The notes below the pieces were generated by a model. That model was not told where the DNA came from. It did not search any database and saw nothing but the letters and a program-made list of their open reading frames with translations. Source: a virus (Duplodnaviria; Heunggongvirae; Uroviricota; Caudoviricetes). Taken from it: a stretch of 34,928 bases of DNA. The DNA lies in the IMG/VR virus record IMGVR_UViG_3300026224_000021. One strand, written 5' to 3'. Shown piece by piece: positions 25,803-28,686 of the stretch (its first letter is position 1; the number at the start of each line of letters is the position of its first letter). A program made the position numbers and the translations under genes.

Positions 25803-25831
25803 GTCGCTTTTCCTTATGTTGATTAATTAAC

Positions 25832-25946
25832 CGTTTACGGGATTTTTAAATCCCGCTTTCGCCTGTTTTGTGCGCACTTCATGTTTTATGGCGCGTTTTT
25901 TGCTCATTTACGGGATTTGTGAATCCCGTTTCTGTCTGTTTTTTGT
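25832..25946. repeat. parC-like centromere/operator: two 41-bp direct repeats each containing an 8-bp palindrome
   Basis: 25832-25872 and 25906-25946 share tttacgggattt(t/g)t(a/g)aatcccg...ctgtttt with inner palindrome CGGGATTT...AAATCCCG; repeat 1 is just upstream of parM, repeat 2 lies inside the 3' end of gene A. Confidence 0.6.
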
Positions 25947-28686
25947 TTCCACTGGTCAGGCCACCCCGCAGCAGGTCTGCTTTGCGGTGGGCGCGTTCAG
26001 TGGTTTCACTGATTCTTTGTGCATGCTCTGCGTCACGGATGGCGCGCAGCATGTCAGAAAGCACGGTAACGGGTGTTTTCATGGTGTTCTGGTCTTGCTG
26101 AAGTGTGGATGCCAGGCGTGCGGCGGCTTCGGGGTCTGATGCCCCCAGCTGTTCCAGATAGCTGGCGACCGGGTTATGACGGATCTCCGTGCTGCTTACG
26201 CCGTGATTGCGGCTCAGGCGCTGCCAGAGCTGCGTGATTCGGCTGTCCGGGCGGGTATCCGGTTTGCGTACAATTTCAAATCCCTGCGGTGCAATGATGC
26301 TGCCGTCAACGTACAGGCTGCCGCCCCGTAACAGGTGCTGCATCTGCTGTTCACCGATATGCAGGCCGAGAGATTCGGCAGACTCCCGCCATTCTTTAGC
26401 GAGTAATTCGTGGTTATCAGGCAAAGGCCGCTGCTGTTTGCGGCTCTGTGTCCAGCTCTGCATTTCATCACTGCTGTTTTTTGCCTGTTTGTCACGCAGC
26501 GAACGCATCAGCGCCCGGCGTTCGTGCCGTTTCAGTGAGCGCATCCATTCGTTCACTTCAACGCCGTCAGGGAGCTGCGGCCACGGTGCTGGCCGTTCTT
26601 CCGGCTGTTCTGTCCCGTTGTTGTCCGTTTCCTGTACACGGGGACAGTTATTGCCACGAGTCCAAGGGGCGGCAGGGCCGCCCTGAAGGTCAAAACCATT
26701 TTCGCGGGCGCTGTCTTCCGCTTCCGGTTTGCGTCTTACCAGCTTCCAGTTATCCGGATGCGTGCATACGCGGGAAGACTCCCCAATGAGCGGCGACCAG
26801 ATCCCGTAAATCTGTACGCTCTGTTCACCGTAATCGTTCAGCTCATCTGCGAGGTCGTAGGCGGTGCGAATCAGGTAGTCCTTGCGTGGAACAAGCACGC
26901 CACCCTGTTTTTCAATGTAGGTGGCAAAACACCCGGCATCGGCGGCAGCGAGTACCGCATCCATTGCATCATCTTTCAGCCGTTGCGGGCCTTCCGGATT
27001 GCGTGCCATCTGGCTGGCAAGGCGGCGCAGTTCACGCCACACCTGACGGGAGGGGATACCAAAGAACTGGAACTGACGGACCCGGTGAAGGCGCGCCCAG
27101 CCGATGGCGCGCTCCACGCTCTCGGCCATTGATTTTCCGGTTTCGTGGTCAACGCGTGGCTTGCCCGTTTTCGGGTCGATGCCATCCACGGCGCGGCTGT
27201 CCAGGTTCTTTCCGATGTAGGTAGCGATGTAGCTGGTTGGTGTGCCTTTTGAGCCGTCGACATACTCCGCCTTAAAGCGCGGAGTAATATCATTGCCCAG
27301 CTCGTGGCGGTCCTCCTGAATGGCAATATCGCAGACGTGGGACACGATGGTTTCAATCTCGTCCGGATGTGCAAAGACCATCATATGCCAGTGCACGGTG
27401 CCGTCATGGTGAGGCTCCACCGTGCGGATGCCATACCAGCGCAGGCCGTCGCGGTTCAGTTTTTTGCGGACCGCCGCAAAAAACGTGTTAACCAGGTAAT
27501 CGCTGGAGTCGCGCATGGTGGCCCCGTTCCATTTGGGGTTCGGATGACCGTTCTCCGTTGTTGCGTGGTATTTTGACGGGCAGGTGACGGTCAGAAACAC
27601 CGCTCTGTCGCCACGGGCTTCGGCCAGAAGTTCCAGTCCCTTCATGGTGGCCATCATTTCTGCCTTACGGTGAACCGGGTTACTTACTCCCGCGTAATAC
27701 ACCGTCTCGAGATCAATCGTGAACCCGTCTTCATTTTCCAGCATGAAACTTTTCAGGAAATCGCGTGTTTTCTCGCGCTGTGCGCGAAACTCGCTTAACG
27801 CATCCTGGCTCAGATAGGGTGATGTTTTTCTGGAAACCAGACAGGCGGCGCGGAGTTGTTCTTCTCTCCACTCGCAACGTAACAGCCACAGTTTGCGTTT
27901 CCACCAGTCCGCACAGGTCAGGCGGAGGATTGCGCCCGGTAACAGTTCCGTATTCGGATCGCTCTTGTTCAGGGCTTCGTAATGTGGCGGCATGATGTGC
28001 AGGCATAATGCGATACGGGCTAGCATCCGGTAAGCCTTCAACATTACATCCATGGTCAGCTCGCCATCTCTGGCACCAAAGCCATCGCAGAGTGTTTCAA
28101 AGGTGCTGCTGAACATCGCCGCCGTCATGGTGGCCAGCGTCTGTATCTGGTGCTTGTTGAGCTGCGGCAGGTAAAGCAAATCGTCCAGGCGTTCTCGCCC
28201 GGCAAGGGAGCGATAACCCGGTGTCAGCCAGCGTCCGTCAGTGCGATCCAGACGTTCGAATATTTTGCGCAGGGTTCCGCGTGCATAGCGTTCCGCCTGC
28301 CAGCTCTTTTTGCCTTTCTGGCGATCGGCTTCCTGTTTTTTGCGCAGGAAGGAGAGGTGGCGAATAAGCGGATCGCGCAGATAGGATGGCAGCAGGCGCA
28401 GCGAGGCCATGGCTTCATCCACCGCGCCGCGTGCCTGTTTTCTGGCTTCTCTGGCCAGTGTGATGGTTTTGTCCTGTTTTTCCTGTGCGTCCAGGCTTTT
28501 ATTAATCAGGTTGCCCAGCGGTGTGGCGGAGAACGCCGCATCAGCCATTTCCTGGCGGCGTTCGTTCTCTGCCCGGTAGGCATCCAGCCAGGAGGAAAGT
28601 GCGGATTCAGGTGCGGGGATCTCCGTTCCTTCACGTCCTACTGCGTGGCGCGGTTGTTGCCAGTCCCTGATGTACTCTGTCGTCAT
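25879..28686 (-). CDS. A: replication initiation endonuclease (gpA-like rolling-circle Rep)
   Basis: 935-aa ORF with HUH-type motif HWHMMVF and paired tyrosines YIATY as in P2 A / phiX174 A-type Rep proteins; has a C-terminal extension relative to P2 A (about 761 aa). Confidence 0.75.
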   Translation of the reverse strand: MTTEYIRDWQQPRHAVGREGTEIPAPESALSSWLDAYRAENERRQEMADAAFSATPLGNLINKSLDAQEKQDKTITLAREARKQARGAVDEAMASLRLLPSYLRDPLIRHLSFLRKKQEADRQKGKKSWQAERYARGTLRKIFERLDRTDGRWLTPGYRSLAGRERLDDLLYLPQLNKHQIQTLATMTAAMFSSTFETLCDGFGARDGELTMDVMLKAYRMLARIALCLHIMPPHYEALNKSDPNTELLPGAILRLTCADWWKRKLWLLRCEWREEQLRAACLVSRKTSPYLSQDALSEFRAQREKTRDFLKSFMLENEDGFTIDLETVYYAGVSNPVHRKAEMMATMKGLELLAEARGDRAVFLTVTCPSKYHATTENGHPNPKWNGATMRDSSDYLVNTFFAAVRKKLNRDGLRWYGIRTVEPHHDGTVHWHMMVFAHPDEIETIVSHVCDIAIQEDRHELGNDITPRFKAEYVDGSKGTPTSYIATYIGKNLDSRAVDGIDPKTGKPRVDHETGKSMAESVERAIGWARLHRVRQFQFFGIPSRQVWRELRRLASQMARNPEGPQRLKDDAMDAVLAAADAGCFATYIEKQGGVLVPRKDYLIRTAYDLADELNDYGEQSVQIYGIWSPLIGESSRVCTHPDNWKLVRRKPEAEDSARENGFDLQGGPAAPWTRGNNCPRVQETDNNGTEQPEERPAPWPQLPDGVEVNEWMRSLKRHERRALMRSLRDKQAKNSSDEMQSWTQSRKQQRPLPDNHELLAKEWRESAESLGLHIGEQQMQHLLRGGSLYVDGSIIAPQGFEIVRKPDTRPDSRITQLWQRLSRNHGVSSTEIRHNPVASYLEQLGASDPEAAARLASTLQQDQNTMKTPVTVLSDMLRAIRDAEHAQRISETTERAHRKADLLRGGLTSGNKKQTETGFTNPVNEQKTRHKT

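Follow-up and report, generated by a model that had tools for sequence, protein, structure and literature searches.

Gene layout and upstream repeats

The window analysed here, a whole stretch of 34,928 bp, is a P88-like prophage (Xuanwuvirus, P2-like), which encodes close homologues of the ParM and ParR proteins of plasmid R1. The parR gene is located directly downstream of parM and starts 5 nt past the parM stop codon. An Rrf2-like gene is found at 23851-24276. Gene A, which encodes the replication endonuclease gpA, ends 76 bp upstream of parM (gap at 25803-25878). The features of the region are as follows.

24524-24838, minus strand: parR (104 aa, begins MTTPTRRISFYLKP), PF10784; presumed binder of the dyads; its start agrees with the P88 annotation.
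24843-25802, minus strand: parM, actin-like segregation ATPase (319 aa), with Pfam StbA_N and ParM C-terminal domains.
25819-25826, minus strand: TTAATCAA box, 17-24 nt before the parM ATG, kept in E. coli, Hafnia, and Plesiomonas; possibly part of the leader or translation-initiation region.
25834-25872, minus strand: proximal repeat copy (39 nt), coding strand CACAAAACAGGCGAAAG-CGGGATTTAAAAATCCCG-TAAA.
25834-25944, minus strand: ten A-tracts, mostly AAA(A)C, with about 10.5-bp phasing and one unit absent around the gpA stop; predicted bent DNA enclosing both dyads.
25838-25855, no strand assigned: proximal dyad CGGGATTTTTAAATCCCG (18 bp), in the A-parM gap, 36-53 nt upstream of the parM ATG.
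25879-28686, minus strand: gpA replication endonuclease (935 aa), PF05840; the final ~22 codons are DNA of the putative partition site.
25907-25945, minus strand: distal repeat copy (39 nt), coding strand CAAAAAACAGACAGAAA-CGGGATTCACAAATCCCG-TAAA.
25911-25928, no strand assigned: distal dyad CGGGATTTGTGAATCCCG (18 bp), in the final gpA codons, 109-126 nt upstream of the parM ATG.

Both proteins of the cassette have clear homologues. ParM matched the Pfam StbA_N domain (E=6e-82), the ParM C-terminal domain (E=1e-68), and R1 ParM (1MWK; E=1.2e-92, residues 2-316), and it is 46% identical to R1-type ParM. ParR matched PF10784 (E=2.5e-24); the sole solved structure matched was pB171 ParR (2JD3; E=0.006), over residues 6-62 of the N-terminal domain. 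Alignment with R1-type ParR showed a conserved RRxSFYL strand and a C-terminal KKNxxxFFP motif. Judged from these matches, the homology of ParM and ParR to the R1 and pB171 proteins is genuine. The locus contains the parts that characterize a type II (ParMRC) system: an actin-like ParM, a ParR adaptor directly downstream, and a repeated cis site immediately upstream. The PADLOC search gave no defence-system match for ParM, ParR, a 101-aa ORF, or the Rrf2-like protein. A variable cargo hotspot, located between gene A and cos or portal, adjoins the repeat region.

The initial annotation described two 41-bp direct repeats about 74 bp apart, each with an 8-bp palindrome. The repeats were recovered by a repeat finder as 39-41 nt (39 nt found, plus two bases), with 82% identity; the true start-to-start spacing is 73 bp. 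One copy lies in the 76-bp gap and the other in the last codons of gene A, as described, with the TGA stop of gpA (25881-25879) between them. The proximal dyad reads CGGGATTT-TT-AAATCCCG, so the 8-bp palindrome is exact in this copy (8-bp arms, or 7 bp with a 4-nt centre), whereas the distal dyad reads CGGGATT-TGTG-AATCCCG and has 7-bp arms only. The distal dyad encodes the gpA residues TGFTNPV. A motif search for further copies, also proposed in that annotation, found CGGGATT-N4-AATCCCG (up to 2 mismatches) at exactly these two sites in the window; shuffled sequences are expected to give 0.16.

Association of the sites with parMR and with phased A-tracts

Pairs of GGG-N10-CCC sites occur at nearly the same positions upstream of parM in three genera. 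Relative to the parM ATG, they are located at -125/-52 in the window, -128/-55 in Hafnia, and -131/-59 in Plesiomonas, with a spacing of 72-73 bp and against a background density of 0.3-0.6 sites per kb. The Hafnia and Plesiomonas ParM share 62% and 63% identity with the window ParM, respectively, and the surrounding sequence has diverged. This cross-genus evidence comes from a single contig family in Hafnia and a single contig in Plesiomonas, since few further relatives were found: the genome contigs gave only 3 near-identical loci, the viral contigs gave no further relatives with the Hafnia ParM, and one Enterobacter-type locus with the Plesiomonas ParM. In P0018 (ParM 81%), the gene is truncated at the contig end and the upstream DNA is absent. 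Among the close relatives, the spacing is 73 bp in 81 of 84.

The association was also analysed in an IMG/VR sample of 120 loci carrying the exact dyad. All 40 two-copy loci are linked to parM, with their paired sites 53 and 126 nt upstream of it. Every one of the 77 parM-linked loci has a site 53-54 and/or 125-126 nt upstream, at 53 nt in 70 of them. The dyad also occurs without parM linkage in 40 loci, all of which are single copies with unrelated flanks. ParR is encoded in 94 of 95 loci bearing the sites; the Rrf2-like gene is found in 6 of 95. Lineages with the RK-type ParR strand (Serratia and Enterobacter prophages) carry different repeats in the same place, with 20-bp inverted arms; in Enterobacter, parM and its own upstream repeats are about 1.2 kb from gpA. 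In the E. coli genomes, almost all copies (1441 of 1443 places) are chromosomally integrated, so the usual role in plasmid partition is not obvious.

The upstream gene is variable. In L052, the end of gpA lies elsewhere, and the distal-site DNA gives the same ...TGFTNPVNEQKTR tail to a 155-aa ORF that is unrelated; the homology to the window starts just 5' of the distal repeat copy. In Hafnia, an unrelated 167-aa ORF covers the equivalent distal site. By these sequence comparisons, the sites follow parMR, and not gene A, whichever gene is upstream. Conservation within the close E. coli family is no higher in the dyad arms (mean minor-allele frequency 0.025) than in the flanks (0.023-0.040), which speaks neither for nor against a binding site. 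Variants with a change in one arm, such as GGGACT and AATCCT, are frequent in the close relatives, and most relatives have TCAG as the dyad centre.

The DNA around the dyads has a strong helical periodicity. Its AA/TT periodicity power of 2.68 ranks first among 3480 windows of 130 nt (99th percentile 1.05) and is similar to that of an R1-type parC (2.75). The spacing of AAC motifs as iterons gave an ambiguous outcome, and the AA-periodicity test was used instead. No A-tract phasing was detectable in Hafnia or Plesiomonas. The initial annotation considered the repeats to differ from the iteron array of R1. This is only partly so: clearly repeated sequence is limited to two units, vs ten iterons in R1, but these units lie among about ten A-tracts whose 10.5-bp phasing reaches the strength of an R1-type parC.

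The repeats could also be an incidental scar of duplication or recombination at the boundary of the cargo hotspot, without function. The position next to the hotspot, the L052 homology breakpoint right beside the distal copy, and the unremarkable conservation within the family would all fit such an origin. However, position and spacing are kept in three genera despite the diverged surroundings, paired sites are exclusively linked to parM, and the pair coincides with the strongest helical phasing of the window. A functionless scar therefore seems unlikely.

Transcription and regulation of the region

The repeats had been placed across a parM promoter. No sigma-70-like promoter was detected within 170 nt upstream of parM by consensus-based scans (at least 9/12 matches, or 8/12 with A2 and T6), which weak or non-canonical promoters could escape. 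Applied to the R1-type and Serratia plasmid parMR loci, the same scan does find their promoters. The parM promoter is thus not borne out by the sequence. One hand-picked candidate, with TTTAAA in the proximal dyad centre as -35 and ATTAAT as -10, was dropped, as most relatives have another dyad centre (TCAG) and A2 is missing from the -10. The suggestion that the repeats are the operator/centromere of the module can be kept in part: the conserved position and the linkage to parM argue for a par cis site, but for the other half of the classical parC role, that of an operator, there is no support, as no promoter was found. There is no terminator between A and parM. Together with the lack of a recognisable promoter, this suggests that the parMR cassette is probably co-transcribed with A, as part of the early replication operon.

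In such an A-parM transcript (minus strand), the palindromes might act as RNA hairpins for processing, stability, or translational coupling. The 158-nt region folds better than its shuffles (z = -3.9), both dyads form hairpins of -9 to -11 kcal/mol, and the 4-nt centre is variable while the arms are mostly retained. In Hafnia and Plesiomonas, however, the sites fold at just -3 to -5 kcal/mol, and it is GGG/CCC at a fixed 16-bp span that is retained. No compensatory double change was found in 57 distinct sequences, the variants commonly seen either lose a pair or have a wobble on opposite strands, and the Rfam search of the region gave no match at E<=1. Since the hairpin is not conserved across the genera, an RNA element is quite unlikely.

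The dyads might instead insulate the modules from each other, or be intrinsic terminators for transcripts of the plus strand, which run antisense to parM and A. Both hairpins have a T-rich run after them when read on the plus strand, and the consensus scan flags 25910-25929. This is one of the two copies only, and shuffled sequences give 1.3 such sites; the T-richness is the complement of the A-tract array. There is also no upstream plus-strand gene to terminate, the nearest end being at 23782, about 2 kb off and beyond four convergent genes, and Hafnia and Plesiomonas no longer have the hairpin. A search of the coding (minus) strand found no intrinsic terminator at the dyads. A terminator or insulator role is very improbable.

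Rrf2-family regulators bind palindromes, and the distal dyad is inside the gpA coding sequence, but operators for the Rrf2-like protein (proposed in the initial annotation as a binder alongside ParR) or another regulator, or gpA/ori-related sites, have hardly any probability, given how rarely the Rrf2-like gene accompanies the repeats compared with parR, the other ORF that separates gpA from the sites in Hafnia and L052, and the distance of the Enterobacter parM and its different repeats from gpA.

A candidate partition site and comparison with known systems

The dyads and the phased A-tracts (about 25834-25944) are best explained, on sequence grounds, as the parC-equivalent centromere of a type II ParMR cassette in P88-like, P2-type temperate phages, which we consider likely. 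By analogy with R1 and pB171, ParR dimers would bind the GGG/CCC-flanked dyads. The half-site AAA(T/A)CCC is similar to the 11-bp iterons of R1-type parC, which are A-rich and end in CCC. As 73 bp corresponds to 7.0 helical turns, both sites are predicted to lie on the same face of intrinsically bent DNA. Cooperative loading of ParR might fold this stretch into a partition complex, which might capture the ends of ParM filaments via the conserved C-terminal peptide of ParR. The main role of the site may be to serve phage circles, excised or replicating, as a centromere, and not to be a self-contained autoregulated operator.

A further possibility, more tentative, is that P88-like integrating phages, which occur in about a quarter of complete E. 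coli genomes, have a ParMR-centromere cassette, complete except for a promoter, attached at the end of the early replication operon. In the lysogen it would not be expressed, and it would come on with gpA; the actin-like filaments could position or separate excised and replicating circles, or maintain a transient plasmid state before integration. If true, the centromere tolerates translation as the tail of any upstream gene.

For P88 or P2-like phages, literature searches found neither a ParMR cassette nor its site described. The site, most likely where ParR docks, is new for this phage group. Such a part is to be expected in an operon annotated as parMR, so the surprise for a specialist is limited. 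If ParR binds the dyads, a functional type II centromere is present in the chromosome of about 24% of complete E. coli genomes, inside an integrating phage. This raises the question of what use a plasmid-type actin segregation machine is to a P2-like phage, and how it is kept harmless in the lysogen. The site would also be a compact variant centromere, with two dyads 7 helical turns apart in predicted bent DNA, to set beside those of R1, pB171, and pSK41. It also illustrates how unrelated coding sequences can overprint a cis site.

The R1 parC is curved, and consists of two sets of five 11-bp iterons flanking the promoter (PMC2241845). The P88-like site is similar in being located immediately upstream of parM-parR, with a ParR of the same Pfam family; it is also A-rich, with about ten phased units of 10.5-11 bp and an equally strong periodicity. 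It differs in having two strong sites only, each a dyad of inverted half-sites, 73 bp apart. The R1-type parC has a clear promoter (TTGACT-16-TAAACT), whereas none is detectable here. Moreover, the distal site is overprinted by the upstream ORF, and the carrier is an integrating phage and not a plasmid.

The pB171 ParR (StbB, PDB 2JD3) is a ribbon-helix-helix dimer, which binds cooperatively to short repeats. The window ParR matches its N-terminal domain, with low sequence identity. In a Serratia plasmid parMR locus (L006), ACTCAnnnTGAGTA-type palindromes are located upstream of parM around the promoter. They differ from the window dyads in sequence, are present in three copies, and have a strong promoter (TTGATG-16-TATAAT) between them. 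Dyad-type sites therefore do occur in ParMR loci.

The prophage CGP3 of Corynebacterium glutamicum encodes the actin-like filament protein AlpC and the adaptor AlpA, which binds repeats (alpS, 24 short TTAAnnG repeats) upstream of the operon and tethers the excised circular phage DNA (PMC4446434). Expression of the alp genes is induced early, and efficient replication of the phage DNA depends on them (PMC4446434). Like the window, CGP3 is an integrated prophage with an actin-like protein and an adaptor; the host phylum, the phage type, and the repeat type are different. As a functional precedent for an integrating phage with a partition-type cassette, AlpAC is the best. If the promoter-less arrangement is true, the P88-like cassette, with genuine ParMRC parts of the plasmid type, would be an equivalent of CGP3 AlpAC in Gram-negative bacteria.

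The repeated site and its prophage setting

Two direct repeats were located upstream of parM by a repeat finder. The copies share 82% identity, their starts are separated by 73 bp, and each contains a dyad. The initial annotation had described 41-nt repeats 74 bp apart, with 8-bp arms in both copies; these values were slightly off, and the description was essentially right. gpA, parM, and parR all run on the minus strand, with a gap of 76 bp between gpA and parM. The features are as follows.

25834-25872: direct repeat, proximal copy, 39 nt
25907-25945: direct repeat, distal copy, 39 nt
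25838-25855: proximal dyad, CGGGATTTTTAAATCCCG
25911-25928: distal dyad, CGGGATTTGTGAATCCCG, coding for gpA residues TGFTNPV
28686..25879, minus: gpA, replication endonuclease
25881-25879, minus: gpA stop codon, between both repeat copies
25819-25826, minus: TTAATCAA box, 17-24 nt before the parM ATG, kept in E. coli, Hafnia, and Plesiomonas prophages
25802..24843, minus: parM
24838..24524, minus: parR, 104 aa, PF10784 member

The pattern CGGGATT-N4-AATCCCG (up to 2 mismatches) occurs at only two places in the whole 34,928-bp window, both of them the dyads; shuffled sequences would give 0.16. The window is a P88-like prophage (Xuanwuvirus, Peduoviridae, P2-like), with the gene order terminase, portal, ogr-like gene, variable cargo, parR, parM, and gpA. 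Fourteen phage records align with the 201-bp region around the site (25780-25980) at 92-94%, and in every one the aligned part is annotated as "replication endonuclease | plasmid segregation protein ParM". Of 5426 complete E. coli genomes, 1304 contain this region, with at most 3 copies per genome, and 1441 of its 1443 placements are chromosomal. The E. coli "plasmid" record NZ_CP148288.1 (circular, 34,461 bp), which holds one of the related loci, is an entire P88-like phage genome with its integrase, parMR, gpA, and structural genes. It may represent phage DNA that was excised or replicating, or a phage maintained as a plasmid.

ParM contains the Pfam StbA_N and ParM C-terminal domains, and matches R1 ParM (1MWK) with E=1e-92. 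The N-terminal domain of ParR aligns with pB171 ParR (2JD3), and its C-terminal part keeps the KKNxxxFFP motif common to R1-type ParR proteins. The stretch from parR to the ogr-like gene or portal (23851-24527, minus) is a cargo hotspot with variable contents. Here it carries an Rrf2-like gene (6/95 related loci) and a 101-aa ORF (13/95), and PADLOC gave no match for these two proteins. Downstream of parR in other loci (L010, L013, L014, L095, L097, and L099), the cargo includes HicAB, a KAP NTPase, a DUF3800 protein, SSB, and others. Two RNAs were matched at Rfam gathering level just upstream of gpA.

29419-29506, minus: C4 antisense RNA, 80.5 bits
29542-29616, minus: isrK Hfq-binding sRNA, 64.3 bits

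Both matches lie inside a mechanically called 326-aa ORF (28693..29673); therefore, its N-terminal two thirds are probably non-coding.

Association of the site with parMR

In P2-like prophages that are more distantly related, parMR occupies the equivalent position behind gpA, with ParM identities of 62% (Hafnia), 63% (Plesiomonas), 59% (Serratia), and 54% (Enterobacter). Relative to the parM ATG, a GGG-N10-CCC pair is found at -125/-52 in the window, -128/-55 in Hafnia, and -131/-59 in Plesiomonas, with spacings of 73, 73, and 72 bp, respectively; the background density is 0.3-0.6 sites per kb. The GGG/CCC triplets and the TTAATCAA box were the main conserved islands in a four-way alignment.

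The upstream genes are variable. In the Hafnia locus (L010), the distal site falls within an unrelated 167-aa ORF (2953-3456) inserted between gpA and parM. In an E. coli-type locus (L052), gpA stops elsewhere, and an unrelated 155-aa zinc-ribbon-like ORF (957-1424) runs into the partition-site DNA, gaining the same ...KQTKTGFTNPVNEQKTRSDI tail as the window gpA; homology to the window begins just 5' of the distal repeat. Three unrelated upstream ORFs thus end in or just past the site. The dyad site belongs to the par cassette, and the end of gpA overprints it. The C-terminal tail common to gpA (25879-25945) and the 155-aa ORF reads ...TGFTNPVNEQKTR, and the last four gpA codons alternate between RHKT and RRDI among relatives. 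The window gpA (935 aa) also has about 75 extra C-terminal residues compared with that of L052, starting near an in-frame MKTPVTVLSD... (25879-26100, minus); gpA may have gained these by fusion with a small ORF downstream.

An exact dyad-pattern scan of IMG/VR identified at least 120 loci. In 77 of them, parM is present and the dyad precedes its start by 53-54 and/or 125-126 nt; all 40 two-copy cases among the matches listed belong to these 77. Another 3 are the same region broken at a contig end. The remaining 40 are lone single copies with unrelated flanks and centres, and look like chance matches, given the great size of the collection. The centromere role first suggested for the repeats is thus backed by their linkage to parM and their conserved position across genera. 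From these sequence comparisons, the dyad site is probably the centromere of the ParMR cassette.

Proposed recognition and expression of the site

An alternative is that the dyads act as an RNA hairpin. The RNA fold of the region is strong (z = -3.9), but the stems are weak in Hafnia and Plesiomonas (-3 to -5 kcal/mol, versus -9 to -11 in E. coli), where the outer GGG and CCC still keep a fixed span. No compensatory changes were found among 57 distinct close-relative sequences; the common variants GGGACT (distal) and AATCCT (proximal) each disrupt a base pair on one of the two strands, and Rfam gave no match for the region. The fixed half-site geometry, together with pairing that is not conserved, fits a dimeric protein that would recognise the double-stranded DNA. 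As a caveat, conservation within the close family is no higher in the arms than in the flanks (mean minor-allele frequency 0.025 and 0.023-0.040, respectively); only the 4-nt dyad centres stand out, being more variable (0.123).

The presumed binder is ParR. It is encoded in 94 of 95 related loci versus 6 for the Rrf2-like protein, which argues against the latter, also proposed initially. Two ParR alleles, about 53% identical overall (50-59%), occur with ParM proteins 98-100% identical and the same upstream sites, and both have the N-terminal strand RRISFYLKP. The P88-type allele, not the window's, is present in about 65 of the 95 loci (L015-L097). Serratia and Enterobacter prophages have RKISFYLKP in ParR and different repeats at the same location, with 14-20-bp inverted arms GGGAAC..ATAGAAAAAT / ATTTTTCT..GTTCCC and 26-28 nt between.

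L014, 3380-3446: Serratia/Enterobacter-type site upstream of parM
L095, 3383-3450: the same
L103, 1083-1150: the same

An GCCGTTTAAACGGC-like palindrome also occurs nearer the parM ATG in these prophages. Repeats that precede parM on IncL/M and IncF plasmids share the ATTTTTCT core, and the IncL/M ParR strand has RK too. The nearest plasmid ParR to that of the window is of the R1/R100 StbB type (41% identity). ParR strand type appears to track repeat type; this, and the likeness of the half-sites to R1-type iterons, are correlations, not proof.

The proposed parM promoter was not recovered, and the operator role suggested with it is not supported. In both the window and the majority variant, standard and laxer scans of the 170 nt preceding parM gave no sigma-70-like site. 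The same scan did recover plasmid promoters: TTGACT-16-TAAACT (R1-type locus) and TTGATG-16-TATAAT (Serratia plasmid locus). The TTAATCAA box does not match a -10 element. No coding-strand terminator was found between gpA and parM. Most economically, the cassette would be co-transcribed with the early replication operon and then be silent in the lysogen, which would explain the chromosomal tolerance of a centromere and filament system.

Comparison with R1 parC and other partition systems

In the literature searched, neither this ParMR cassette nor its site was described for P88 or P2-like phages. The cassette has some unusual architectural features. R1 parC is 159 bp long and strongly curved, with two sets of five 11-bp iterons around a 39-bp promoter core (PMC2241845). 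The half-site AAA(T/A)CCC resembles the A-rich, CCC-ending iterons of the R1-type locus. Ten A-tracts in the window site (centres -139.5 to -33) are all in 10.5 bp phase, with one unit absent at the stop codon of gpA. Among 3480 windows of 130 nt, 25821-25950 has the highest AA/TT periodicity (power 2.68; 99th percentile 1.05), compared with 2.75 for an R1-type parC. The window site is therefore more than a pair of palindromes in place of iterons: it is predicted to be a bent array of phased A-tracts that includes two strong dyads, separated by 7.0 helical turns. In Hafnia and Plesiomonas, no such phasing was detectable. The difference from R1 first noted holds for the two dyads, but not for the phased A-tract array, which is as periodic as R1-type parC.

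Among the sequence features of type II ParMRC systems, the window has ParM, ParR, and an upstream repeated site; consensus scans gave no embedded promoter. The best functional precedent is AlpAC/alpS of prophage CGP3, in which the excised phage DNA is tethered to actin-like filaments and replication is promoted (PMC4446434).
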